This document shows, in pieces, positions 3,731-63,775 of a stretch of 64,000 bases of DNA. The position numbers and the translations under genes were made by a program. Numbering within the stretch: the stretch's first letter is position 1; every line of letters starts with the position of its first letter. The stretch is from Chiloscyllium plagiosum (Eukaryota), in assembly GCF_004010195.1 (NCBI RefSeq), contig NC_057718.1, forward strand, positions 73,841,931 to 73,905,930, read 5' to 3'. A model generated the notes under the pieces. The model was not told where the DNA came from. It was given only the letters and a program-made list of their open reading frames with translations, and did not search any database.

Positions 3731-4029
3731 AACTATGGAACATCAAGCATCTACTCAGCCTCGAGCAGGAGGTGACACTGGTGATGGTAATCAGAGACTT
3801 TGTCAAAATGCATTTGGAGGCATGTGTACAACAGACAGGTCTGTAGGAGAAAATAGCTTTCATAGCCCAGAGGCTGCTAGACTGCAGCTACACTATTGGC
3901 ACCAGTTGCCTCAAGCATACAATTGTCTAGCTGCACCCATTGATAGGTTGGGTCTGGCAAGGGAGAGCCAGGTCCAAAACTCTCAGAATCTGCCAGACAT
4001 ATGCACAAAACTGGACTCTATTGCCCTAT

Positions 4030-4292
4030 TGTGTAAAGTGTCAATGTTGGACTGCGGTGGACAAGGTCAGAAGCTACGTGACACAAGGTTATAGTCCAAC
4101 AGGTTTATTTGAAATCATCGGCTTTCAAAGCATTGCTGCTTCACCAGGTGAAGGGAAGAGAAGCACACAGACACAGAATTTATAAATTTGGTACCTGTAT
4201 ACTTATCTTCATTTCACCTGATGAAGGAGCAGCGCTCCAAAAGCTTGGTGATTTAAAATAAACCTGGTGAAATGTGACTTCTGTCTTTGTCC
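4030..4292. mobile_element. Short inverted PLE-terminal element (family B) with hammerhead-like motif
   Basis: Imperfect inverted arms; CTGATGA-A-GGAGC..GCTCC-aAAA-GCTT at 4218-4246; flanked by direct repeat attgcccta (4020-4028, 4293-4301). Confidence 0.65.
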
Positions 4293-4919
4293 ATTGCCCT
4301 AGATAATGGTCTCTATGAGTGATGGCATGGCTTAAGTGGGGTCAAGGAACCTTAAGATCACTCCAGGTGCCCCTTACACAGAGACAGAGATTCCTCCGGT
4401 GTTGGCAATTATTGGATGTTCATTTCTGTGAATGAGGAATGTGCACTCGGTGTCCATGGATCATGCCCTGAGATGGTGGTGCATGGTGACCAACATGGAG
4501 GATCCTCACAGTCTGCTGAAGTTGCAAGCTACCCACTCTGATGTCCATGTTGAGAATTCTTAGCTTCTAGTTTGCTCACAGTGGATGGTACAGTACGAAG
4601 CTGAATTTTAGTGAATTCTGCAGTTTATAATTTTGTCAACACATGATTAATCCTGCTTAATAGGGAAAAATTACATCTTTTGAAGTGTAAAGGAAAGAAG
4701 GCCCACCTGGCATGGATTAAGGTACTGGAAACAGAAGCTCTGTCAACCCTGTAAAGTCCTCCTTATTAACATCTGGGGGCTAGTGTCAAAATTGGGAGAG
4801 TGGTATCTCAGATTAGTCAAGCAATAGCCTGATATAATGATACTCATGGAATCATACCACATACATAGCAATACAGACAATGACATCATTATCCCACATG
4901 TTCTACCCCTGGCAGGGCA

Positions 4920-5534
4920 TGTTAGATTTTTTTTCCCTGAGATTCTTACACGTGATGCAATTGCAACACACCAACTTCTGTGAACAACCAAGATTTTATG
5001 AAGCATAGTACAGTACAAACTTTCTGGAGAAACTTTTAAAACACACCTCGCAGGACTTGCGGAGTCATGTCAAAGCTCTTCCTGAACAAGGAAAACAGTC
5101 CTTTCTTTGTACAAAATCTTTACATCACAGTTAGTAATGCCCACAAGACAACCCCCAGTCACTCCCTCACAGTAACATGCCACTTAAGACACAATACAGT
5201 GGCCACATCATCCCCAGAAACAATGTAATGCAAGTCATCCCTTAATGGTCAAATCTGTTGCAAATCATTTTTTTTGTAAGTATAGGGGAGGAGTCAAATT
5301 TCAACTGTAATGTTCTTATTGTTTTCTGAATAGTGGATGAAAATGTAAATAGTAGGAGATGGCAACGTAAATGGCTCTGAATGGCAAGGAAATGGCCATG
5401 TAAAGGCTCTGAATAATAGGAGATGATAATGCAGTTTCTTAAAATGTATCTGTAAGTCAGAGGCATCTCACCCTAGCCTCAGGACATCCAATTTCCTGCA
5501 GGTCAAATAGAGCAAATTAACTCTTTAATATCAC
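4920..5534. mobile_element. Probable solo LTR (second copy begins at ~63779)
   Basis: TG...CA ends; interrupts an older LINE; first ~250 bp aligns by eye with 63779-64000 (gagattcttacac, caacttctgtgaacaacca, aaacagtcctt). Confidence 0.5.
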
Positions 5535-5660
5535 AGATAGACCCAACAGAGATGGTGGCATAGTGGTTAGCAGTCAGGAGGGAGTTGCCCTTGGCTTTCT
5601 TAGCATTAATGGATGCTGCCTGAAGAACACAGCAATTCAGGCAGCATCCGAGGACAGGCA

Positions 5661-5700
5661 AAATCGACGTTTCGGGCAAAAGCCCTTCATCAGGAATAAA
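5661..5700 (-). ncRNA. Minimal type-I hammerhead ribozyme-like motif (PLE terminus)
   Basis: Minus strand reads auuc-CUGAUGA-A-GGGC(UUUU)GCCC-GAAA-CGUC-gauu: full core, 4-bp stem II, palindromic ACGU stem III, GUC triplet. Confidence 0.6.
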
Positions 5701-5892
5701 GGCAGAGAGCCTGAAGCGTGGAGAGATAAGCTAGAGGAGTTCCACATCCATCAAAGCTTTACCTGCACATCCACTAATATCATCTATTGTATCCGTTGCT
5801 CCCGATGCGGTCTCCTCTACATTGGGGAGACTGGGCGCCTCCTAGCAGAGCGCTTTAGGGAACATCTCCGAGACACCCGCACCAATCAACCA

Positions 5893-6134
5893 NNNNNNNN
5901 NNNNNNNNNNNNNNNNNNNNNNNNNNNNNNNNNNNNNNNNNNNNNNNNNNNNNNNNNNNNNNNNNNNNNNNNNNNNNNNNNNNNNNNNNNNNNNNNNNNN
6001 NNNNNNNNNNNNNNNNNNNNNNNNNNNNNNNNNNNNNNNNNNNNNNNNNNNNNNNNNNNNNNNNNNNNNNNNNNNNNNNNNNNNNNNNNNNNNNNNNNNN
6101 NNNNNNNNNNNNNNNNNNNNNNNNNNNNNNNNNN
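5893..6134. other. Assembly gap (242 N)
   Basis: Run of N. Confidence 1.
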
Positions 6135-6870
6135 CCTGGCCAGGTAGTCACGGAGGGAACGGTCTTTGCGGAAGGCGGAGAGGGGTGGGGAGGGAAATAT
6201 ATCCCTGGTGGTGGGGTCTGTTTGGAGGTGGCGGAAATGTCGGCGGATGATTTGGTTAATGCGAAGGTTGGTTTCCACCCTATCAGAGTATTGAAAATGT
6301 TTTATGTTATAACTGTTATTCTGATTTATTTTAAGGAGGAAAACGGATAAGAAAGGTAAAACAGTAATCGTCATAGTCTCAAAGCAGACAATGGAGCATC
6401 ATTTAACATGGGTATTCCAGAAATCTGCATAATTATGTGTTCATCAGGTCTCCGTAGGTGGAATTAGCTATGAAATTCCACTAGAAATACCTGGGCATTC
6501 CTGGCAAAATCTAGCCTATACATTAGCTGAGACTTCTGAACCAATGTAGTGTCTCACGTGCGAAAGATTTTGAAGATAGGACTTTTTTTTACCCGCCACT
6601 AATGGTCAACTGGGAGGTAAGAAGCCTGTGGAATGGATGGGTTTGGGTGTTGTCTTCCTGCTGCTATTTAACTAGAAGTGGTGAAGGTGGAGAATGGCTC
6701 TTCCATACAGAAGCCAATTGATCCACTAAAGTGACCAATTAAGGCACACTTCCTCCTGTCGCTGGTATTTTATCAGTGACAGGTGGGCTGTCTGCCATTT
6801 GGGGAGACTGCCTGATGAATCCGGGCAGCCTTCTGTAAGGTGACCAGGAGGACACTCCTATTCAGATAGC

Positions 6871-6986
6871 CATGATGTGGAGGAGCCAGTGTTGGATTGG
6901 GGTGAACAAAGTTAAAAATCACATATCAGGTTATAATCCAAACAGGTGCTGTTGGACTATAACCTGGTGTTACCTGATTTTTAACA
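6871..6986. mobile_element. Short inverted PLE-terminal element (family B)
   Basis: atgatgtggagg...gttaaaaatca...caggttata / tataacctg...tgatttttaac inverted arms; 13-bp direct repeat ctattcagatagc (6858-6870, 6987-6999). Confidence 0.7.
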
Positions 6987-9559
6987 CTATTCAGATAGCA
7001 TGTGGCCCAGAAAGAGGTCCATTAGTGGCAATGATCACCTCTGCAGTAGCTGCAGGTTGCACTTACCTGGTTAGGAGGACAACATTATCTTCTTCCAGAG
7101 ACAACCCCAACAGTTGCCGGGAACCAGTTGAGTATGTGTATTTTTGCATGGCCTTTTGACAGGTGCAATCTGTTCTTTTTCTACCTTGCAAAGTAAGGGC
7201 AGTTACTATTGAAACAGTCCAGTTTAGGCAGCACTCATACTGCTTTATAAAACCACACTAGGGATACTTAAAGAGTCATTTTTGTGGCTCTCATCCCCTG
7301 TTGTGTTGTACTGAAATGTAAACATGGTGCTAGATATGGATTGGATTTTTGCTCATGGATACCCAGGTTCCAAATAATTTGGTTTGGATCATTGACAGCA
7401 GAATAGACAAAGGGAAAGGCATCACACTGAGGTGATAGGCTGTGTTTTTAAACACCACTCTCTTGGGAGGTTTAACACAAAGATTGAGAGTGTCTTGAAT
7501 GAGGTCATTCTTTCCTGAGGTTTGTTATTGTTCCTGATCAAACCAGACATTTTTTTTGTCACCTGAAATGGTCCAAGTCCCCAGTGTAAAGCCTGTCTCC
7601 TCTTATGTTCTGATTAGTAAACACTCCAAACCTCTGAACCATAACATCCCACTGGGGATTGTGGTTTTTGCAGATTTCAGACGGGTTCCAGTTTTATATT
7701 CTCAATTACATTTGCAGGTCTCATTCAAACAGCCGCTTTTCCAATATAACTAGTCAGATTTCCAATATAACTAGCCTTGCTCAAAAGCAATTAAATTAGA
7801 ATAAAAATTATAATTAGTCTCTAAGATCGTTCTGGTGTACAAGGGATAGATAATCATAGAGAGGAAGACATGGAAGAGGAAGGCTGGCATGTGAGAAAAT
7901 AACTGATATGGGGATGAGGGCTGGTAAAGAAGACAACGTGTATCTGTGAAATAGAGGATTGTATAGAAAGAATTAGAGGTGCAGAGGTAAAGAAGAGCTC
8001 TTGTATACAGGGGTGGGGGTGGGGGAAACAAACATAACTGAAAGGCAACTGGAGAAGCAGACTGGAAAGGGAGACAAAAATTTTACTTAAATCCAGGAAC
8101 TACTTATATTTGACTTCACAAAAAAGAGGTGAAATGGCAAGGAAAATCTTTAACTCTTTTTTTCCTGCTTTTTTGTATTGAGGATTGGCTTGCCAAAGTG
8201 TCCAATTTCATACTTTGAATAAAAACCTCCTTAAATGGATTTCCAACCATGTCAAGTACATTAGCTGTTGTGGAACTTAATTGGAAATACTCCTAATGTT
8301 TTATTGGGTGAGCTTTTCACTTCTGTATTAAATCCCTTGTAAGTGGGTGGTCAAAGATGAGAAACTGGTAAGTGGAACTCCATCCCGCTACATAGGCTCC
8401 CATTAGCCATTATTATAACAGCTGGATTAAGACAGCTGAATATCCCACACAGGGCATTCTTTTAGCATTTTAAAATCAGGGCCCACAGTTCAGTTGTGAC
8501 CCAATTTAAGTTAAGCAATTGCCACACTGGTCTCCCATGGTTCATTCCTTGTAGGTACATCACATCATCATCTCATAAATCAAGAGAACAGGCTTAAAAA
8601 ACAAACAATTTGGTATAAAAATAACTTTATTTTTGCCAAACAAACTAATAAATAAATTGACAGTTGGTTTATAAACCTTATTAAAGCTCATAAAGCTTAT
8701 TAAACCTCTTAAAAAGTTAAGTCTGTTTACAAAATCTGTACATTTAAAACATTTTGCTAATAAACGTTTGCAACGTTAGAAGTTTGCAAGTATTTAGACA
8801 GGCTTAACGAGTGGAGTGGAATATCTGATGAAAAGTCATCCACTTGAATCTCTTTGCAAATGCTGCATGACCAGCTGAATATTTCCTGCATTTTCTCATT
8901 TTATTTCCATGTCCTCAGTGCCAGTAACAGACAGCAGCCTAGGCAGGCAAGGAGTACTCACAAGAGATTAAATTCTCTCCACTGCCAGGTTATTTATCTC
9001 TCTGTCCAGAACACTAGGGCTACAAACATTCTCCAGCTTCTCGTGGAAGTTAAACTGCGGTAAATTGGCCAGAGTTTTGACGTCTGTACTCAGAGTCAAG
9101 AAAATGAACGCTGTCATCTCCATAGATACAGTATTCCTTGTGATCCAAGAGCCTTGGTAATTTGTTAGTGTATGCCCTATACAAGATGGACTACAGCAAT
9201 CACTATAGTTCATTTGAGAGCATCTTCCAAATTGGCGACATTTACCAAGGGAAATAGATGCATAGAAACATGTAATTTCCTCTCCACTGGACGTACATAA
9301 GTCCTGGAATTATATCGCTGTTCCTTAAATGTTGCTAGGCCAAAATTGTAGAACTCCCTCCTAATAGAACTGTGGGATGTATCTACATCACATGGACTGC
9401 AGAAATTCAAAATGACATCTCACCACTACCTGCCCAAGATCGTGGGGTCAGGTGACAAATGCTGGTCTATCCAGTGAAACTGACGTCCCATGAATGAATA
9501 AAAGAGTTACAAAAGTGAAAATGCCCAAGTGAAAAATGCAATTTGATCAGTTAGTCTTA

Positions 9560-9732
9560 TGCTTTCCTTTATTGGCCAGAGCATTGAGCTAGGAGTTGGG
9601 AGGTCATATTGCGGCTGTACAGGACATTGGTTAGGCCACTTTTGAAATATTGCGAGCAATTCTGGTCTCCTTCCTATCAGAAGGATGTTGTGAAACTTGA
9701 AAGGGTTGAGAAAAGATTTACAAGGATGTTGG
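9560..9732 (+). mobile_element. CR1-like LINE fragment
   Basis: RLYRTLVRPLLKYCEQFWSPSY...LERVEKRFTRML. Confidence 0.8.
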
Positions 9733-10445
9733 TGCAGGTGTCCCAGAAATGTTCTCTGAAACGATCTGCAAGTTGGCAGTTTTTCTTTCCCGATCTGGAG
9801 ACCATATCGGGTGCACGGACACAGTAGATGACGTGAGGAAGTACAGTTGCATTTCTGTCAGATGTGGAAGGATCCTTTGAGGCCTTGAATGGAGGTGAGG
9901 GGGAAGTTGTGGTCGCAGGTTTTGCATTTCTTGCGATGGCAGAGGAAGGTGCTGGGCTGGTGGTGGGCGTGGATCTGACATGGAGGTCACGGAGGAAATG
10001 GTCTCTCCGAAACATAGATCAGAGTGAGGAGGGAAATATATCCTTAGTGGTGGGGTCTGTTTGTGGGTGACAGAAGTGGCAGAGGATGATGTGATGGTTG
10101 TTTCAGAGAACATCTCTGGGGGACACGCAATCAATGTGGATTTCACCAGTTTCCTCATTTCCCCTCCCCGCACCTTACCCCAGTCCCAAGTCTCCAACTC
10201 GGCACTGCCATCTTGACCTGTCCATCTTCCTTCCCACCTATCCGGTCCATGCTCCTCTCTGAGCTATCACTTTCACCCTCACCTTCATCTACTTATCACA
10301 TTCCCAGCTGCCTTTCCCCCCAGCCCTGAACTCCCTCCCATTTATCTCTCAGCCCCCTGGCCCGGCTTATGCCTAAAATGTCGATTCTCCTGCGCCTTGG
10401 ATGCTGCCTGACCTTCTGTGCTTTTCCAGTACCACACTCCCAAAC
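9733..10445. mobile_element. Penelope-like element fragment (GIY-YIG region on - strand, terminal part on + strand)
   Basis: - strand FRRDHFLRD...VIYCVR...LADRFREH; + strand family-A terminus (gtcgattctcctg...ggatgctgcctgacc...cttttccag) at 10380-10440. Confidence 0.75.
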
Positions 10446-10454
10446 CTCAACTCC

Positions 10455-12345
10455 TATACTCAATGCACTAGCCAAAAAGGTACCAAGCACCTTCTTCACT
10501 ACCCTCTCAACTTCAAGGGTCTATGAACCTGCACTCCAAGTCTCTATTTTCTGCAACACTCCCCAAGACCCTACTATTAAGTCTATAAATCCCACTCTGA
10601 TTTGCCTTACCAAAATACAACACCTCACATTATCTAAATTAAACTCTGTCTGCCACTCCTCAACCCATGAGCCCATCTGATCATGGTCCTATTATACTCT
10701 GAGATGACCTTCACAGTCCAATACACCACCAATTTTGGTGTGATCTGCAAACTTACTACCCATTCTTCCTATATTCACACCCAACTCATTTACATAAATA
10801 ACAAAAAGCAGTGGACCCAGCACTGATCCTTGCAGCACACTGCTGGTCACAGGCTTCCAGTCTGAATAACAACCCTCTATCACCACCTACCTTCAAGCCA
10901 ATTTTGTATTCAAATGGCTAGCTCACATTGGATTTCATGTGATCTAACCTTGCTAACCAGTTTTCGTGAGGAATCTTGTCAAACACTTTGCCAAAGTCCA
11001 TATAGACAGCATCCTCTGCTCTGCCTTCATCAATCATCTTTGTCACTTCTTCAAAAAACTCAATCAAGTTAGTAAGACATGATTTCCCAAGCACAAAGCC
11101 ATGTTCACTATCCCTAATCAGTCTTTGCTCTTCCAAATATATATAAATTCTATCCCTCAGAATTCCCTCAACAACTTATCTATCACCGATGTCAAGTTCA
11201 CCAGTCTATAGTTCCCTGGCTTTTCCTTACTACCTTTCTTAAATAATGGCACTGTGTTAGCCACCCTCCAGTTTTCCGGCACTTCAGTCCTGGCTACCAA
11301 TGATACAAATATCTGAGCAAAGGGCCCAGGAATCACTTCCCAGCTTCCCACAAAATTCTGTGATTTATCTGATTAGGTCCCAGGGATTTGTCCACCTGCA
11401 TGTGTTTTAAGATGTCTAGCACTTCATCCTCTGTAATATTGATAATTTTCAAGATCTCATTATTTCTTCTCCAAGTATTCTAGCCTCCATATCCTCCAGA
11501 GTAAACACTGGCACAAAATACTTGTCTAGTATCTTATCTTTCTCCTGCAGTTCCACATAAATGGCCTTGTTGATCTTTAAAGGGCCCTCTTCTCTCCTTA
11601 GGTATTCTTTTGCCCTTAATGTATCTGTAAAATCTCTTTGGATCCTTCTTAACCCTACTTGCCAAAGCTATCTCATGTCCTCTTTTCGCCCTCCTGTTTT
11701 CCCTGAGTATACTCCGATTGCCCTTTATACTCCTCGAAGGATTCACTCGATCCCACTGTCTATACTTGCTGTACTAAGAGAGGACATCTTGGAGGGGATC
11801 ATCCAGTGAGCCATATGGATGGAATGTAGAAATAAAAGTGTAGTCATTATGATACCGTTAAATGATACACCTTCCAATAGCCAATGGAAATTAAAGAAAC
11901 AGGTAGGTAAGCAGATCATGGAAAGATTTAAAAACAATGGAGTTGTGATCGTGGGTGATTTTAATTTCCCCAATATTCACTGGAACTCCCTTAATGCCAG
12001 GGGCCTATAAAGGGCAGAATTTGTAGGGTGCACTTAGGAGGGTTTCTTAAAACAAAATGTAGATAGTCAAACTAGGAAAGGGGCCATATTAGACATTGTA
12101 TTAGAGAATAAGCCTGGCCAGGTGATTAAAGATTCAGTAAGGGGACCATTTTGAAAAAAGAATGATCATAATTCTGTATGTTTTAAAATAATTATGGAAG
12201 AGGATAAGATTGGTTCTTGGCTAAAAGAACTAGATTGGGAGAAAACTAATTATAACAGTATTAGGCAAGAACTCAAAAAAATGGATTGAGGGCAACTGTT
12301 TGAAGGTAAATCAATATCTGACATGTGGGAGTCTTTTAAAAGTCA
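10455..12345 (-). mobile_element. CR1-like LINE ORF2 with 5' inversion (RT on -, endonuclease segment 11750-12345 on +)
   Basis: - strand WRVANTVPLFKKG, HGFVLGKSCLTNL, YMDFGKVFD, QGSVLGPLLF, KFADHTK; + strand VVIVGDFNFPNIHW (APE endonuclease). Confidence 0.85.
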
Positions 12346-12349
12346 CTGC

Positions 12350-13320
12350 TCTTACGCAACCCCCCAATCAAACAAAATAAAGACAGAGTTCCCCCTTGTC
12401 CTCACTTTCCACTCCACTAGTCTCCACTTCCAACGAATTATCTTCAAACACTTGCACCAACTCCACTACCAAGGATATCTACCCCTCCATCCCTTCTCTA
12501 CCTTCCGCAAGGACCATTCCCTTCCACATTCCTTGTTTCGTGCCACACACCCCATCAACCCTCCAATTTCCCCTGCACCTTCCCCTGTAACCACAAAAGA
12601 TGCAAAACCTGTTGGCATACCACCTCCCTCACTTCCATCCAGGGCCACAAACAGTCCTTCCAGGTCAAACAGAAGTTCATCTCCTCTCCCTAACCTAGTT
12701 TACTGCATCCAGTGCTCCCAATATGGTCTTCTCTAAAAATGAGACCAAATGTAAACTCAGGACACATTTTGCCCAGCATTACAGCCAGGCCATAAGGGCC
12801 AGCCTGACCTCCCAGTCACCGCCCATTTAAACTCCCCTTCCCACTCCCTCTCTAACATATCCATCCTTGGCATCCTCCATTGGCACGCTGAATCAGACTA
12901 CAAATCGGAGGAACAACACCTTATCTTCATCCTGGGCAGTCTACTGCTCTGAAGACTCAACACTAAGTTCTTCAATTTCAAATAATGCTCCCACCCATCC
13001 CCCAACCTCCTTTACAGCCCTGTCTCCTCCCTTCCATTCCACTTATCGACCCTTCCTTCCAGCCACCAACAGGATTCATCCCTTCCATCGACTAACCAGG
13101 TTGTACCCATTATCTGTGTTCACCTATCACTACTTCACCTCCGGCTCTCCCCGTCTCTTTACCTGCAGCTCCCCCTACCCCTACCCTGATTCCTAAAGAA
13201 GGGTTATACATGAAACATTAAATTCTCCACCTCCTGAGGCCGCTCGGCTTGCTTGTTCTTCCAGACTCCTGCTTGTCTACTTTGGATTCCAGCATCTGCA
13301 GTTTTTTTTTGTCTCTAACA
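12350..13320 (+). mobile_element. Penelope-like element 3' portion (GIY-YIG plus terminal repeat)
   Basis: PLVLTFH...IIFKH...FRKDHSL, NLVYCIQCSQYGL, EEQHLIFILG; terminus ...ggattccagcatctgcag. Confidence 0.75.
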
Positions 13321-15226: not shown

Positions 15227-15675
15227 TGAGAGTGTGATGCTGGAAAAGCACAGCCAGTCAGGCAGCATCCGAGGAGCAGGGGAATCGATGTTTCAGGCAT
15301 AAGCACTTCATCAGGAATGAGACTTGTGGGTTGAGGCAGAAAGATGAGTGGGAGGGGTATTGGGTTGCGGGGAGGTAGCTGGGAAAGTGATAGGTGGATG
15401 AAGGTGAGGGAGAAGGTGATAGGTCAGAGGGGGCAGTGATGGATGAGACTGGAGGGCAGTGCCAAGTCGGATGCTTGGGACTGGGATAATATGGAGGGAG
15501 GGGAAGTGAAGAAATTCACATTTATCCTGTGTAGTTTCAGGGTCCCAAGGCGAAACAGCTGTTGGGTGGTAACAGTTTGGCGGTGGAGGAGGCACAGGAC
15601 CTGCATGTCCTTGACGGAGTGGGAGGGGAAATTGAAGTGCAACCACACAGGATAAATGTGGATTTCAACAGCTTC
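15227..15675 (-). mobile_element. PLE 3'-terminal fragment (family A) inserted in Gmr1 gag
   Basis: gtgtgatgctggaaaagcacagc...ggcagcatcc terminus; degenerate hammerhead on - strand at ~15282-15316. Confidence 0.7.
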
Positions 15676-16629
15676 CAAATATGTTGAAACATTACCAAAA
15701 TCAAAGAAAAGGATGTAGAAGCCTTTTTTGTTTCTTTTGAGAAATTGGCTAACCAGATGAACTGGCCAGAGACTACGTGGGTTCTGTTAATTCAGAACAA
15801 ATTGGTAGGTAGGGTTAATGAGGTGTTTGCAGCGCTGTCAAAGGAGGTGACAGGGGAATATGAAGAAGTAAGAAAGGCAGTTTTGAGTGCTTACAAATTG
15901 GCACAAGAAGCATATCGACAACAGTTCAGAAATGTAAGGAAGGAACTAGGTCAGGCTTATATTGAGTTTGAAAGAATTAAACAGAGCAACTTCGACAAAT
16001 AAATCAGAGCATTAAAAATAGAAAAGACATACCAGGATCTGAGAGATATTATTCAGCTGGTAGAGTTTTAAAAACTCCCTTCCAGAAGTGATAAGAACTC
16101 ATGTTGAGGAACAGAAAGTTAAAACCGTGAGAAGAGCTGTAAAGATGGCGGATGAATATGCATTAGTACATAAATCGACACCTAACTTCTGATAGCAATT
16201 ACATTCCTTGAGGGACAGACATTGGGAAAGGGGGAGATCCTTCAGTGAAAACAAAAGGTAGACCACACTGGTAACAATTTAACACACATGAAAAAAAGTG
16301 TTTTCAATGCAATAAGGTGGGACACACAAAGTCACAGTGCTGATGGTTTAAGAAAAGCACTGGGAAAGAGATTTGGTAAAAGAGGCGAAACCTGTGAGAT
16401 TAGTTAAGGCAGTGACGGAAGTTCTGAGAGAAGTTGAGGAGCTGTAGGAGAGTGAACTGCATAGCGAGGAGCTGGATAGTAAGGTAGCACCTGATCTTTT
16501 GGGACTCACCTGTGGGTAAGATTGACTCAGGTACAACATAGGGAGTAGGTAGGAAGAAAGGTGCGACAGGTCAAGGGGCGGTGCCAAGTTGGAGGGTTGG
16601 ATCTGGGATGAGGTGGAGAGAGGGGAGAT

Positions 16630-17268
16630 TTGGACAAACAAGCAGACAAAACATATCCAGAAACCCTAGCCACTCTCCCCTACATCAAAGACACCTTGGA
16701 AATGACTGCCAGACTATTCAGACCCCTTGGCATCATGGTAGCCCACAAACCCACCAACACACTAAAACAGCAGCTAATGAATTTGAAAGACCCTATACAG
16801 ACAGCAAGCAAAACTAATGTCATTTACAAAATACCATGCAAGAACTGTAACAAACACTACATTGGACAAACAGGCAGAAAACTAGCCACCAGGATACATG
16901 AACTCCAACTAGCCACAAAAGGACATGATCCTCTCTCACTCATATCCTTACATACAGATAAGGAAGGACACCACTTTGACTGGTACAATACATCCATCTT
17001 AGAACAAATCAAACAGAGACATGCATGAGAATTCCTAGAAGCATGGCATTCTAACCGGAACTCTATCAACAAGTTAGACTCCATCTACCACCCCCTGAGA
17101 AAAAGAACAGGAAATGATGTCACCAACCCAAAGAAACCCAAACATATAAATAGAAAGCAGGAATCATGTACACTGCTTCGCCTGAGGTTCACTGAAGATG
17201 TTACCTAGTAGGGTGACGAAACGCCTGAAAATGAACCTCCCAGCTCAGCGAGCAAATCTACATGCATA
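16630..17268 (+). mobile_element. Penelope-like element 3' end (second PLE family, C-type terminus), GIY-YIG endonuclease
   Basis: ORF 16630-17028 TLPYIK...KPTNTL...NVIYKIPCKNCNKHYIGQTGRKLATRIHE; hammerhead-like motif at 17185-17240. Confidence 0.85.
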
Positions 17269-17717
17269 GTACGAGGTTGATATAGGGAATGCTGTTCCAA
17301 TAAAACAACACCCCTACAGGCTTAATCCTCTCAATGCAGTGCTGGTTTAGAAAAAGTGCAAGTAATGCTCCAAGAAGACATCATAGAGATGAGTCAAATT
17401 GCCTGGAGATCGCAAATCATTTTGGTTCATAAACCTGATGGTACTGAAGAATTCTGCGTGGATTATTGGAAGGTCAACACTGTGACAAAGAGCTGACTCA
17501 TACCCAATTCTGGAGGATTGTGTGGAAAAACTGCGAAAAGCCACTTACTTTACAAAGCTTGATTTACTATTATCAGAGAAAGCAAAAGACATTTTTGCCT
17601 TTGTAATCCCAAATGGGCTATATCAATTTAAAGTAATGCCCTTTGGAATGAAAAATGCACCAGTCACTTTCCAAAGGCTTATGAACAGAACTCTTGCAGG
17701 ATTGACTGTGCAGTCTG

Positions 17718-17917
17718 GGAGAAAGTGAGGACTGCAGATGCTGGAGATCAGAGCTGAAAAATGTGTTGCTGGAAAAGCGCAGCAGGTCAGGCAGCATCCA
17801 AGGAGCAGGAGAATCGATGTTTCGGGCATAAGCCCTTCTTCAGGAAATGTCGATTCTCCTGCTTCTTGGATGCTGCCTGACCTGCTGCGCTTTTCCAGCA
17901 ACACATTTTTCAGCTCT
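17718..17917. mobile_element. Short palindromic PLE-terminal element (family A) inserted in Gmr1 RT
   Basis: Long near-perfect inverted arms; hammerhead core on - strand 17811-17844; duplicated tgtgcagtctg (17707-17717, 17921-17931). Confidence 0.8.
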
Positions 17918-18907
17918 AATTGTGCAGTCTGCAGAGATGACTTAGTGATCTTTAGCCATCCGTAGAAAGATCATGTGGTGCATTTGGTGAACTCTTTGAG
18001 AGACTACAAAAGGCAAAATTAGTCATAAACTTGGCAAATACAGAGTTTGCAAAGGTGAAAATGACATTCTTAGAACACAACACTGGGCACAGATTACACT
18101 GAGGAATGTGAAGACAAAGGCCATCAAAGAATTTCCAAGACTATTCATGAAGAAGAAAGTGTTATGATTTTTAGGACCGAGTGGATTCAACAGGAAATTT
18201 GTACCAAACGTTAGTAGCGTAGTGGCACCATTAACGGATTTGTTACAAAAGTACACAAACGTTTGGTGGATAGAACCATGCCAGTAGGCATTCGAGAATT
18301 TAAAAGCACTGTTAACCACCAGACCAGTTTTAGCCACGTCCAATTTTCTAAAACCTTTTAAAGTTGCTATTAATGCAAGCGATGTTGGTGTTGGATCTCT
18401 GTTATTACAGGAGGATGAAGGTGGAATTGAAAGGCTAATTGGTTATTTTTCAAATTAAACTCAATATCCACCAGAAAAGACATTCAACCATCGAAAAAGA
18501 GTTATTGAGTTTGACACTTGCCTGACAACATTTTAATGTTTACTTTGCAAACAATGTATCAGAGATGGTTGTGTATATCGATCGCAATCCTTTGACATTC
18601 TTGGAAAGATTTAAGGACAAAAACACGAGATTATTTCATTGGAATCTCATGTTTCAAGCATATAATTTACAGATTGTACATGTTGCCGGTCACACAAATA
18701 TTATCGCGGATGCTTTATTGCAGGTTTGAAAGAAAAATGTTTGTATAAGATAGAAACGGTGGTGTTCAATGTTATATATAAATGGAATTTGAATAAAATG
18801 TATAAGCGTAGATTAATGATCTATGGACTAGTAAAATGATAGAGTTAATGATTTTAAAGAGAAAAAATAAAGCCATCTTTTTATAATGATCATTCATTGG
18901 GGGGAGG

Positions 18908-20020: not shown

Positions 20021-20198
20021 GAGCTTTGGCTCCTCAAGCACCAACTCTGCCTAGCTCCCCCACTCACCTCCCCATCTCCCTCGAATCATCTTGTCCCTGA
20101 TCACAGACTAATTTTGAATAACCTAATCTGATGTGACCACCCTCTAGAGTAAAGAACCAGTCACTTTCCCCCTCTTATGTCGTACAATGCTTTTAACT

Positions 20199-20310
20199 AG
20201 GAGAAAGTGAGGACTGCAGATATTGGAGATCAGAGTCGAGAGTGTGGTGCTGGAAAAGCACAGAGGATGCTGCCTGACCTGCTGTGCTTTTCCAGCACCA
20301 CACTCTCGAT
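20199..20310. mobile_element. Short palindromic PLE-terminal element (family A, centre deleted)
   Basis: Inverted arms tcgagagtgtggtgctggaaaagcacag / ctgtgcttttccagcaccacactctcga; 13-bp direct repeat aatg(c/a)ttttaact (20186-20198, 20311-20323). Confidence 0.75.
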
Positions 20311-25387: not shown

Positions 25388-26255
25388 GTATGGTTGCAAA
25401 TTGTATGAGTACTCTGTACTAAAACTCATCGATTTAAGTTACCTATTTCAATTTGACATGCATTCTCATGTCCATTTTTGTGATTGTACAATTTCAATTC
25501 AGTAAAAATGGGCTATATCAGTGAAAGGACATTAAATATTGCTGCATTTGCATGGATTACAGGAGCTAGCTTGGACTGACTCTTCCTGCAAGTGATCATC
25601 TATTCATAGACAAAGGATATATGCAAGAATAAGGTGACTAGATCAGTAAAATAGCCATCTTTTTTATGGAGTTGATATCATCTAGAGCCAGATTTCACAT
25701 AGCGATCAAAATGGATACTTTTCTTGAGCTGTTGAAATTCACCATATGATCTTGCAGGCACTGACATTATCTGGTGTGACACTAAGCCATTACAGAGCAG
25801 AAAGATCATGATTTGCTTCATTTTGAGTTGGTTCATTTCAGCTAGAGCCCCCTGAGTTATAACTTCAAGCTCTTAAATCACACCAGAAAAGAAAGAACTA
25901 TAGCTCCTGTTCTTATTGCTGTTCTGGCAGTTTTGTTACTTACTCTGAAGATGTTAAGAAAGTGTACCATGTAATATTTTTTGCAATCTTGAAGTCCCAA
26001 TGTGCTTCATAGACAACAAAATACTTTTGTACTGTGTCACTGTTGAAGTGTAGACAGATTTGAACCTATCAGTTTCTTCCAATAACAAGAAACTTATTAT
26101 TGCATGATTTGTTTTAACAATACTAATTGAGATTAAAATTGGCCAGGAGAATGTCTGCTGTTCAACCAGTTCATGGGATCATCAACACCTACTGAGGACT
26201 TATTTCTGATGGGTTAGTTCTCTGACGCAGCTTGGATTTGCTGCTCAATTCTCAT

Positions 26256-26379
26256 AGGCAAAAGTGAGGACTGCGGATGCTGGAAACCAGAGTTCTATTC
26301 CTGATGAAGGGCTTTTGCCCGAAATGTCGATTTTCCTGCTTCTCGTCTACTGCCTGACCTATGGTTTTCCAGCACCATT
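26256..26379. mobile_element. Short PLE-terminal element (family A) in SYNCRIP intron 2, hammerhead-like motif in sense orientation
   Basis: CTGATGA-A-GGGC(TTTT)GCCC-GAAA-TGTC at 26301-26328; 15-bp direct repeat ctgctc(a/t)attctcat (26241-26255, 26380-26394). Confidence 0.75.
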
Positions 26380-27459
26380 CTGCTCTATTCTCATGTTCAC
26401 ATTTTTAACAGCAGTATTTTGTGTAGGAGTTGTAAATTATTTTCATCTTGCTAACGCTACTTCATAAAGCTTAAATGCAGAAGTTCCCTTTCCTTTCATC
26501 TTTGAATATTATAAGCCTGTTGCTTTGCTTGAAGGAAAGTTTGAAGAAATATTCCCTTTGAATCTTCAGCTATAGGTTATTCTGATATTGATGGGCAATG
26601 TTTTTCCCCACCACTCTGCTTGAGAAGCTGCCTAGGCTAATGGCTGGATATTGGAATTCCCTGAAATTTCTTGAAATTACCTATCTCTGTTCTGCCTTTG
26701 TTCTCTTCTGCTGAAACTTATCACTGCTGATTAGCCCGCTCCACCCCAAACTTCTGTTGGCTTCCATGTTAGTTGATATTATGAAGTGTTCTATCCCTCA
26801 TTGGTTGTCACTCCTACTTGAAATCTCCACCATCACCCATTCTTAAAACTGAACTCCACTGCCCTTGCAATCTTCATCCCATCTCCAAGCTGCCTTTCTT
26901 ATCAATTGCCTTTAGATGTGTTGCTACTTCCCAAATCTATTTTATTTCTCAATCTTTTGCTTGAATCCTTCCAGTCAGGTTTCTGTTCATAAAATAGTTC
27001 CACAATGGCTCATACTGAAGTCGCAAGATGATTTCTGTGTAACTGTGAAGAAGTTTAAACTTTATCTTCATTGTCCTGACCTATAGTTTTTTTGTACAGT
27101 TGGCTACGCTGCTTCCACTGTCATTCTGTTATGTGGGACTTGCTTACATGTTGAATCACTCGCAATATCTTTTTGCTCCTGCACCATAACCTCTACCGTC
27201 CCCCTAGGATCTAGCTTTGGCCCCCCTCATTTCTCATCTGCATACTGCTCTTCAACATCACCATTTGAAGATGCAGGGTAAGTTTTCACATGCAGGTTGG
27301 TGGCATCCAGCTCACCATCACTTCTCTTGGCTCTTCCAGTGCTGAATTATCAGACAGGTTATGCAATGTCTTAGTACTGGATGTAAACAACAGCTCCAGT
27401 TCTAAATGGGCAGACTGCAGTTGTCTTTGGACTCCACTCCAAACTTCAATCTACTCATT

Positions 27460-43885: not shown

Positions 43886-44543
43886 GTAAAAATTCTGCAG
43901 AAACATTCTGCTTTCAGATTTCAGAGTGAGATGTAACATTGCATATGTAATTTCAAGTAAATTACAAGCTTTGAGTCTGCTGTGATCTGTGATGAAAAAT
44001 TCTTTTTCATCATCTTTCGACTGATTAAGACATTGATGGATAATTAATTTGCTGAGATCATGTATAGTATGTTTTTATAGGTGGCTTTTGAGGGTATGCG
44101 AGCTGTGAAGATGGATAGGCAATCAATTGCATCCAGTTTACCAATGCACCTATTTAATTTTTTTATTCCCTTGGTACTTAGTAATTTATTTTTGAAGTGG
44201 TTACTCTTTGCACAAGTTTGTGAACAATTTGGTTAAATAAATCACATTTAAACACTGCTTGTGGATTTAGTTTTGTAGGATATTTAAAAAATCTGAATGG
44301 CATGTACTTTTGACATTAAAACCTATTCAACATCAGCTTTAGTTGATGGATGTTTCGTCATATGACATTTGGCTTGCCTGTGAATACATTTGCTGGAATT
44401 CAGTATAACCCAATTGTACAGTTTTGTATGTGGCATTCAAACTGCTGCAACCAAAGATATCCTGTAATGGTGACATTTTCTAATTGATGTACAATTAGAC
44501 TGTTTTACAGTGCAATCATTTACCTGTTTCTTCTCCATGACAG

Positions 44544-59939: not shown

Positions 59940-60490
59940 TTGAGGCTGAGGGTGGGCGGATCATTATGGGGAGAACAATGTTAAAAATCACACAACACCA
60001 GATTATAGTCAAGATTGGAGTTGTGCTGGAAATGCACAGCAGATCAGGCAGCATCCGAGGAGTAGGAAAATTGACGTTTTGGCAAAAGCCCTTTGATTTT
60101 CCAGCTCCTCAGATGCTGCCTGATCTGCTATGGTTTTCCAGCACTGCTCTAATCTTGACTCTAATCTCCAGCATCTGCAGTACCCACCTAACCCCAGGTT
60201 ATAGTCCAACAGGTTTATTTGGAAGTACTAGCTTTTGAAGCACCGCTCCTTCTGCAGGTGATTGTGGAGTAGGACCATAAGACAGAACCTATAACAAAAG
60301 ATTACAGTGTCATGCAACTGAACTGATATACAATAGAGATTTGTTAAATATATCACGTCAGTTGCATGATACTGTAATCTTTTGCTATAAATTCTGTGTC
60401 TTATAGTCCTACTCCACAACCACCTGAAGAAGGAGCTGCGCTCCGAAAGGTATTGCTTCTGAATAAACCTGTTGGACGATAACCTGGTGT
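59940..60490. mobile_element. Long palindromic PLE-terminal element (family B) with nested family-A element (60011-60193)
   Basis: Arms 60194-60320 and 60358-60490 are imperfect reverse complements; hammerhead-like cores on both arms; nested element flanked by ccag(a/g)ttatagtc. Confidence 0.75.
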
Positions 60491-61705: not shown

Positions 61706-63775
61706 TAGGGGAAAGTGAGGACTGCAGATGCTGGAGATTAGAGTCTAGAGTGTGGTGCTGGAAAAGCACATCTGGTCAGGCAGCATCTGAGGAGCAGGAG
61801 AGTGGCCATTTCGCCCATAAGCCCTTCATCAAGAAGGAGGGAGTGGCCCGAGGGAGGGGGGGGGGAGGTGGTTGGGCTGGGGGAGTGAAGGTAGCTGGGA
61901 CTGCAATAGGTAGATGAAGATGTGGGTGAAAAGTGATACAAACGAGGATGGAGCAGATAGGTGGGAAGGCAGATGGACATCTCTTTGACTATGACTATAA
62001 CAGTAAGAGGACGGTTTCAAGTTGGAAGGTTGGATCAGGGTTAAGGTGGGGGGAGGGGAAACTGGTGAAATCCACATTCATCCTGTGTGGATGGAGGGTC
62101 CCAGGTGGAAGATGAGGCATTTTTCCTTGAGGTGTCGGATGGCTAGAGTTTGGAGAAGATGTGCTGGAAGGCATTGCTGACCATGAGGGAGGGGAAATTG
62201 TGGTCGTTGAAGAAGGAGGTCAACTGGAATGTTCTTTGGTGGAATTGGTCCTCCTGAGAGCAGATGTGGCAGAGGTGGAGAAATTGGAAATAAGGGATAG
62301 CATTTTGACAGGAGGCAGGGTGGGAGGAGGTGTAGTCCAAGTAACTGTGGGAGTCGGTGGGTTTGTAGTAGATGTTTGTGTTAAGTCGGTTGCTGGAAAT
62401 GGAGACAGAGAGGTCCAGGAAAGGGAGGGAAGTGTCAGAGATGGCTCAGGTGAACTTGAGGTTTGGGTAGAAGGTGTTTGTGAAGTTGAACTGTTCAACC
62501 ACGTGGGAGCATGAGGTGGCACCGATAGTCACCGATGTAGTGGATGAAAAGGTGGGGAATGGTGCCTGCGTAGCTGCGGACGATGGACTGTTCCATGTAC
62601 CTGACGAAGCGGCAGACATAGCTGGGGCCCATGCGGGTGCCCATGGCTACCTCTTTGCCTGAAGGAAGTGGGAGGATTTGAATGAGAAATTGTTAGGGGT
62701 GAGGACCACTTCAGCCAATCAAATGAGTGTGTCAGTGGAAGGGTACTGGTTGGGTTTGTGAGAGAGGAAGAAACGGAAGGCTTGGAGGCCTTTGTCACGG
62801 TGGATGGATGTGTACAGGGACTGGATGTCCATGGTGAAGATGAGGTTTTGGGGGCTGGGGAAAGTCATGGAGGAGGTGGAGGGTGTGGGTGGTGTCCCAA
62901 ATGTATCTGGGGAGTTCCTGGACCAAAGAGAACAGGACAGTGTCGATGTATGCAGAAGTAAGTTGGGTGGGGCAGGAGATGGCTGAGACGATGGATCGAC
63001 TGAAGCAGAGCTGAAAATGTGTAGCTGGAAAAGTGCAGCAGGTCAGGTAGCATCCAAGGAGCAGGAGAATCGACATTTCGGGCATGAGCCCTTCTTCAGG
63101 GCTCGTGCCCGAAATGTCGATTCTCCTGCTCCTTGGATGCTGCCTGACCTGTGCTTTTCCAGCAACACATTTTCAGCTCTGATCTCCAGCATCTGCAGTC
63201 CTCACTTTCTCCTAGATCGACTGAAGCAATCAGGTTTGTGAATGTTGGTAGGAGGTAGAACTGGGTGGTGCGGGGTTCCTGGATTATGAGGTTGGAGGCT
63301 GTTCTGGGAGATCCCTTGAGGTGACGAAGTTGTGGATGGTCTGAGAAATTATGGTTTGGTGATGGGAGGTGAGGGGACAGTAGGAAGTTGGTGCCTAGCT
63401 TCAGTGGTGTTGAGGTTGGTGCGCCAAACCACCACTGCACCCCCCCCCCCGGTCTGCTGAATTGATGGAGTTTGGGGTTGGAGCGGAGGGCTGTGTGTTG
63501 CCATGGTGAGAGGTTGGAGTGGGTGAGAGAAGTTGAGGTGGTCAATGTCATGGTGGTAGTTGGAAATGAAGAGATCGAGGGTGGGTAACAGACCAACATG
63601 GGGTGTCCAGGTAGATGCGGTGTGTTGGAGGCGGAAGAGGGAGTCCTTGGAGGGTGGGTGGGAGTCTTGATGGAAAAAGTCTGCATGGAGGTGGAGGCGA
63701 CGGAAGAAAAGTTCAGTGTCGAACGTGTGTTGAATTCATTGATCCAGGATCTGCTGGGAAGTGTGGCAGCATGGT
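61706..63775 (-). mobile_element. Penelope-like element (family A) with degenerate RT and terminal repeat, in SNX14 intron 1
   Basis: - strand TMDIQSLYTSI, AMGTRMGPSY, degenerate YxDD (YIGD), DYTSSHPASCQNAIP..QFL; terminus ggggaaagtgaggactgcagatgctggag at 61708. Confidence 0.85.
63008..63214. mobile_element. Short palindromic PLE-terminal element (family A) inserted into PLE RT
   Basis: Near-perfect inverted arms around fused hammerhead halves; perfect 14-bp direct repeat gatcgactgaagca (62994-63007, 63215-63228). Confidence 0.85.

Follow-up and report, generated by a model that had tools for sequence, protein, structure and literature searches.

The locus holds a minimal type-I hammerhead ribozyme motif inside a rearranged fragment of a Penelope-like element (PLE), near the left end of the 64,000-nucleotide stretch of DNA that was analysed as a whole, hereafter the window. 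Reading the minus strand directly from 5693 to 5666 gives CUGAUGA-A-GGGC-UUUU-GCCC-GAAA-CGUC, with all 11 core bases kept, and the intact minimal hammerhead claimed by an earlier note on this DNA is therefore present as it was described. The features at the locus are the following:

5666..5693, minus strand: minimal type-I hammerhead with a 4-bp stem II, a UUUU loop, the palindrome ACGU and a GUC cleavage triplet
5662..5697, minus strand: the hammerhead with its weak helix I (5694-5695 with 5665-5664, a U·U mismatch, and 5697 with 5662)
5622..5739, minus strand: pseudo-LTR fragment of a PLE that bears the hammerhead, recognised by homology to other copies in the window
5610..5622, plus strand: fold-back, an inverted duplication of 12-13 bases with which the insertion ends on its left side
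5740..5892, plus strand: GIY-YIG endonuclease remnant, antisense to the hammerhead, with the inversion junction at 5739/5740
6135..6272, minus strand: remnant of the RT-endonuclease linker of the same PLE family in hammerhead sense, 89% to amino acids 256-301 of protein P0001

Position numbering and the cleavage chemistry, by a 2'-OH, are the standard ones for hammerheads. On the minus strand, C3 lies at 5693, N7 at 5689 and A9 at 5687, followed by an extra unpaired base (A5686) between positions 9 and 10.1 that recurs in 15 of the 15 core-bearing copies of the window. Stem II is made of GGGC (5685-5682) and GCCC (5677-5674) around the UUUU loop; it is closed by G10.1-C11.1, and its pairs have predicted probabilities of 0.83-1.0. 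After GAAA (5673-5670) come C15.2 (5669), G16.2 (5668), U16.1 (5667) and C17 (5666), so that the predicted cut falls at 5666/5665, and the focal copy has, besides 11 of 11 core bases, the GUC triplet, U16.1 and H17. Helix III is a loop-less ACGU, palindromic at 15.2-16.2. Helix I consists of 2 bp (C-G, U-A), a U·U mismatch and an A-U pair, which is within the published range of 2-6 bp, at its weak end. The ATG inside the core, taken as the start of an open reading frame, is followed by only 17 codons before a stop. Judged by its sequence, the site is a real minimal hammerhead motif that has every sequence feature of the minimal hammerheads of PLEs, whose consensus reads CUGANGAH, G...C, GAAAN, palindrome, NUH, with the extra base as a conserved feature (PMC4209133). 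The viroid precedent that the earlier note invoked for this extra A is not needed, the base being part of the PLE consensus (PMC4209133). Its statement that a palindromic, loop-less stem III calls for a dimer is likewise borne out: the palindrome is ACGU here, and the need for a dimer is published for motifs of this kind (PMC4209133).

The hammerhead sits in a 118-base piece (5622-5739, minus strand) that is common to many repeats of the window, and family reads diverge beyond both 5622 and 5739, where they have loose ends. The note had placed the motif at a PLE end. A PLE terminal repeat is indeed present, but a clean element end is not: the focal copy lacks the last ~60 bases and the tail of its family, and the fold-back, of 12 bases, which forms a hairpin in the predicted fold of 5608-5740, stands in their place. 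On the other side, the endonuclease remnant, antisense to the ribozyme, scores 27 bits with Pfam PF01541 (cut-off 22.6) and is 96% identical to amino acids 341-391 of P0001. This uncharacterised protein of Chiloscyllium punctatum has RT motifs as well as a CX4CxxC linker and was the best of 28 matches among 33 candidates in the longer-protein search. A run of N separates the endonuclease and linker remnants, and the order within the insertion is sense linker, inverted endonuclease, sense terminal repeat. The 88 and 82 family contigs that diverge on the two sides of 5739/5740 show this junction to be peculiar to the focal locus. Elsewhere in the window, at three loci (12368-13193 on the plus strand, 15651-15314 on the minus strand and 10129-10454 on the plus strand) the endonuclease remnant and the terminal repeat follow each other co-linearly, which indicates that the hammerhead belongs to the normal 3' repeat and that the inversion is local to the focal copy. 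Inverted 5' copies are a known trait of PLEs (PMC8557442). We found no convincing target-site duplication for the focal insertion, the best candidate being 9 bases with 2 mismatches. Two further PLE pieces were seen in the window: an inverted fragment at 9728-10454 that has lost its hammerhead core (10364) and, at 62116-63094, an old RT remnant invaded by the hairpin at 63 kb.

As to the class of the element, a CX2-5CxxC linker is found in P0001 and in the window copy at 12290-12736, the corresponding stretch of the focal copy not being readable. Since this linker is shared by Neptune and Nematis (PMC8557442), and since a recent preprint reports only Neptune and Poseidon among vertebrate PLEs (bioRxiv 10.64898/2026.07.22.740005), the focal element is likely of Neptune type, an assignment made by linker motif and reported vertebrate distribution rather than by a tree; the focal copy itself has no RT core.

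To place the focal copy among its relatives, we searched the window with profiles built from it (E<=0.01) and obtained 19 matches for families A and C, which are sisters and were counted together, 6 for family B, and 3 for family D, which is of Poseidon type. The 19 include hairpin arms and weak pieces, and 8 of them keep the full core; families B and D add another 7 cores, so that the four PLE families together have 15 copies with a core. Not counted in this census were tails, pieces lacking the core, arms whose start falls within it, and two deleted copies (10364 and 56821). The earlier note's count of about a dozen relatives was thus a fair one, and all seven that it named are present; its minus-strand coordinates are low ends (C3 lies at 15314, 17843, 61832 and 63099). 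The copies at 13193 and 51318 belong to the diverged sister family. Two entries among the relatives deserve their own lines:

26301..26328, plus strand: second-best family A copy, helix III AUGU (wobble), in sense orientation within an intron of hnRNP Q (SYNCRIP)
4147 (minus), 4218 (plus), 60257 (minus) and 60424 (plus): second hammerhead family, with stem II GGAGC/GCUCC and helix III AGCU

The copy at 5693 is the sole one among the 15 that keeps the 11 core bases together with a complete stem II, an ACGU of Watson-Crick pairs and the two pairs of helix I, and the copy at 26301 differs from it by one wobble. Being in sense orientation within an hnRNP Q intron, the latter is more likely to be transcribed than the focal copy. 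SYNCRIP we take to be the gene name for hnRNP Q; its exons lie at about 25226-46168 on the plus strand, and the exon at 42600-42803 matches hnRNP Q from the PDB with E=1.4e-43. Another SYNCRIP intron holds a C/D-box snoRNA-like sequence (43984-44059, plus strand; Rfam snoMe28S-Am982, 45.3 bits against a gathering score of 49, E=1.6e-4).

The remaining copies are decayed, often at CpGs, as had been noticed: of the other 7 cores in families A and C, 6 have CG->TG or CG->CA at 15.2-16.2, G12A at a CpG accounts for 3 of the 11 core changes across copies, and each of the four copies with GGAGC/GCUCC (4147, 4218, 60257 and 60424) has a disabling change. Across the four families the core is constant and the helices vary: stem II is GGGC/GCCC, GGAGC/GCUCC or GUUACC/GGUGAC, helix III is ACGU or AGCU, and helix I is UC/GA, AC/GU or CA/UG. 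These helices were read by position in a script rather than through an alignment-based covariation count (MAFFT misaligned the Poseidon-type copies). Core positions are changed in 11 of 165 cases (6.7%), and the 40 bases that follow the cut site in 71 of 519 (13.7%; Fisher p=0.019). The contrast is biased, as copies were picked by a core that could still be recognised and differences between subfamilies add to the flank count; read with this bias in mind, it speaks for selection on master lineages and not on single copies.

Some observations concern the ends of these copies. Five insertions are hairpins made of family A ends (17715-17920, 20197-20310, 26255-26380, 60008-60190 and 63008-63214), with target-site duplications of 11-17 bases and, by eye, a tail of ~35 bases on one arm only; they fit the two RT start sites and two-strand extension described in PMC11167929 as well as the one-sided tail of PMC8557442. 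Many copies (17843, 26301, 51318 and 63099) have their start not at the cut site but slightly ahead of CUGA, by a few bases. Summed read depth drops by 79-87% just upstream of the core (5696-5697), part of which is subfamily difference, and the loose ends there agree poorly (0.32-0.49). A pyrimidine tract followed by AG, resembling a 3' splice site, lies just upstream of the focal hammerhead (5712-5711, minus strand), and similar tracts are found 8 bases upstream of the core at 15314 and 17 upstream of that at 60424; in the Penelope of D. virilis an intron ends at helix I (PMC4209133). The Poseidon-type element of the window has a hammerhead of its own (16612-17260 on the plus strand, 35960 and 60602 on the minus strand) and no zinc linker before its GIY-YIG domain, and an ATG at 17192 opens its stem II, like in the Anolis element.

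A pattern scan of metagenome contigs gave 0 matches to the motif. Copy number and age were approached through four of 24 listed sequencing runs, aligned to 4951-5850 at 88% likeness. In two contig sets of unrecorded kind, summed depth over the core was 2.35 and 13.8 million, against 8.5 and 26.6 in near-identical flank contigs; the ratios, ~2.8 and 5.2 x 10^5, give an order of magnitude only and no direct copy count. From this rough depth ratio the family probably has of the order of 100,000 copies, in agreement with the high copy number that had been claimed for the motif. Among 40 of the 122 variant rows for family reads, the only variant inside the motif is at N7 (5689), a free position, and over ~240 bases the same rows show no fewer than 4 changes private to the focal copy (5627, 5635, 5757 and 5784); it differs from most family members by at least ~2%, a lower bound. 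At 2-5% divergence a 28-mer is computed to stay unmutated 62-24% of the time. Since the focal copy has few private changes, an intact motif is expected even without selection, and the copy is likely young, as judged from these changes. In one run, a single-copy contig agrees with the flank as far as 5609, after which come 168 unmatched letters, a hint of an empty site in that run.

Dimer cleavage of PLE hammerheads has reportedly been described by Lunse, Weinberg and Breaker (2017). A monomer of the focal motif cannot form helix III, because C15.2 and G16.2 without a loop cannot pair intramolecularly. In its predicted fold (-11.4 kcal/mol) UGAUG pairs with CGUCG, the pairs of helix I reach probabilities of only ~0.03-0.04. 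When 133 bases of context are folded, the core is predicted to pair with upstream sequence. The double hammerhead has a predicted energy of -10.3, versus -22.8 for two misfolded monomers, although nearest-neighbour energies omit the tertiary contacts of the core and so understate the active fold. We found no intact same-strand partner near the motif in the window, the nearest same-strand cores being a broken one of another family at 4147 and, at a distance of 9.6 kb, that at 15314, in which both stem II and helix III are disrupted. On the RNA side, 1,100 family reads aligned, 47 of them at least 99% alike, with a mean depth of ~718 over the core. In the same sample (~2% of one single-cell poly(A) run, a kind of data that hardly shows 5'-OH ends) depth was 0 over 5551-5610, the flank adjoining the insertion, and reads did not pile up their starts or ends at the cut site. 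The organism of this run may differ from the species of the window or lack the focal insertion, and a second RNA run gave 0 reads. Strand ratios were 432:286 over the core and ~4:1 antisense over the endonuclease, ratios that oligo-dT priming can bias; family RNA is present on both strands, so partners in trans exist in principle. The suggestion that this copy may still be active is thus not supported, given the missing same-strand partner, the predicted misfolding, the lack of locus-specific RNA reads in one weak test, and an intactness that a young copy would show by chance.

The closest published counterpart is the minimal hammerhead of PLEs described by Cervera and de la Pena in 2014 (PMC4209133), which shares with the focal motif CUGANGA, the extra base, a G-C-closed stem II, GAAA, a loop-less palindrome and NUH, and which likewise occurs mostly as solo copies in truncated elements, with second copies on the opposite strand and thousands of copies per genome; its Nematostella representative has a layout like that of the focal motif (PMC4209133). 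The differences are that cartilaginous fish are not among the 56 of its listed examples that were compared, that the focal helix I is short (2 bp, mismatch), and that copy number, as a rough estimate, is probably 10-50 times the 4,000-9,000 of coelacanth and Xenopus (PMC4209133). For minimal hammerheads, monomers do not cleave and dimers cleave little (PMC4209133); of Xenopus retrozyme dimers, 1 of 9 was cleaved (bioRxiv 10.64898/2026.07.22.740005). PAc, a Poseidon element of Anolis carolinensis (Frangieh et al. 2024, PMC11167929), also has a hammerhead in its terminal repeat ~110-130 bases upstream of the element end, an AT-rich target and a tail on one side of the insertion. Unlike the focal Neptune-type fragment, PAc belongs to the Poseidon clade and is full-length and tandem, with an ORF that starts from stem II; its motif needs protein in order to cut, insertion persists in mutants, and RNA-seq reads do not end at its site (PMC11167929). 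With the Neptune-clade PLEs of Craig et al. 2021 (PMC8557442) the focal element shares a C-terminal GIY-YIG domain, the inverted arrangement and 5' truncation, along with, to judge from its relative P0001, the CX2-5CxxC linker, whereas those have a 30-40 bp tail and the focal copy has neither tail nor detectable target-site duplication and ends in a fold-back. Animal non-LTR retrozymes (PMC7229834; bioRxiv 10.64898/2026.07.22.740005) resemble it in their dimer-dependent type-I hammerhead and their origin from PLE terminal repeats, yet they form tandem arrays and the focal copy is solitary. We found no PLE hammerheads from sharks in the literature searched, the hammerhead retrozymes that the preprint reports from one chondrichthyan aside.

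Taken together, we put at about 0.85 the probability that the focal motif lies in a young, truncated and internally inverted PLE copy of Neptune type and is inactive at this locus, a passive relic. In a full element, two tandem terminal repeats would place two motifs in one transcript, as published for elements of this kind. The ACGU of each would pair with that of the other into a 4-bp helix III (A-U, C-G, G-C, U-A), giving a double hammerhead in which each CUGANGA/GAAA core would slowly cut the other motif behind its GUC through attack of a 2'-OH; for the single PLE that has been assayed, cutting requires the bound protein of the element itself. Selection would have kept the core in master lineages, and scattered copies would inherit it and decay neutrally, CpGs first. 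The focal copy would have lost too few bases to be broken, with no fit partner in cis and its core in a predicted dead hairpin. The motif is thus probably functional in the master element, where it would process tandem transcripts with the help of protein, and the focal copy has the sequence that could cleave in an engineered dimer.

Other readings of the motif were weighed against this passive relic. That it is a chance match to a short, degenerate pattern could be argued from the Rfam hammerhead models, which miss it (no hammerhead among 21 window matches at E<=10), and from a helix I of only 2 bp. A descriptor that allowed one extra base after A9, run on the window along the lines the earlier note had proposed, gave 7 matches, 3 of which (5693 on the minus, 26301 on the plus and 63099 on the minus strand) have the strict form, with at least 4 bp in stem II and no loop on helix III; 200 dinucleotide shuffles yielded 0.03 such matches per window. 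An identical core occupies the same place in four PLE families with differing helices, and the motif is published as a general feature of PLEs (PMC4209133). Because of this conservation across families we consider chance refuted, its probability being practically nil. Cleavage of the focal copy in vivo would need a minus-strand transcript, such as one that starts divergently at the SYNCRIP promoter ~19 kb away, ACGU pairing in trans and a helping PLE protein. The completeness of its core, stem II and Watson-Crick palindrome, unmatched among the 15 copies, the abundance of family sequence in RNA and the protein-assisted cutting shown for the Anolis element (PMC11167929) would all suit it. The zero depth over 5551-5610, the small share of closely alike reads (47 of 1,100), the lack of a read-end pile, the predicted folds that bury the core, and the marginal combination of a 4-bp intermolecular helix with a 2-bp helix I make it unlikely all the same.

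Host co-option, with selection keeping the motif intact at this locus, would account for a perfect core beside decayed relatives. However, the endonuclease remnant next to it is in just as good a state (96% at the amino acid level), which points to a young insertion as a whole; the single-copy contig hints at an empty site beyond 5609, and the ORFs examined show no gene over the locus, so that we hold co-option to be very unlikely. Hardly any more credit can be given to a retrozyme or SINE-like unit that is non-autonomous and multiplies by way of circular RNA processed by the hammerhead. Many short hammerhead-headed pieces are found in the window, and animal retrozymes derive from PLE terminal repeats and occur in one chondrichthyan (bioRxiv 10.64898/2026.07.22.740005). 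Retrozymes are nevertheless defined by head-to-tail tandem units that each carry a hammerhead, while no family A copies stand in direct tandem in the window (spacings 1.3-42 kb) and the focal copy is fused to PLE coding remnants.

Minimal hammerheads of PLEs are already known; what is probably new is their presence in a shark-like host lineage at very high copy. It is tempting, if quite improbable, to think of the young and intact hammerheads dispersed over shark introns, among ~100,000 copies that share a self-complementary ACGU, as a latent genome-wide system for cutting RNA, with CpG methylation of the palindrome as the host's way of disarming it. If this were true, any two same-sense copies in one long pre-mRNA, or copies in two transcripts, could pair and cut host RNA when the PLE protein is expressed. 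The field still asks what PLE hammerheads do: in vitro, the Anolis element can transpose when no cleavage takes place, and Naiad elements do without hammerheads. A single locus gives no answer to it; the focal copy does offer a young, intact sequence for tests of dimer and protein-assisted cleavage, and a genome like this one, whose several young families are very numerous, lends itself well to the question of their role.
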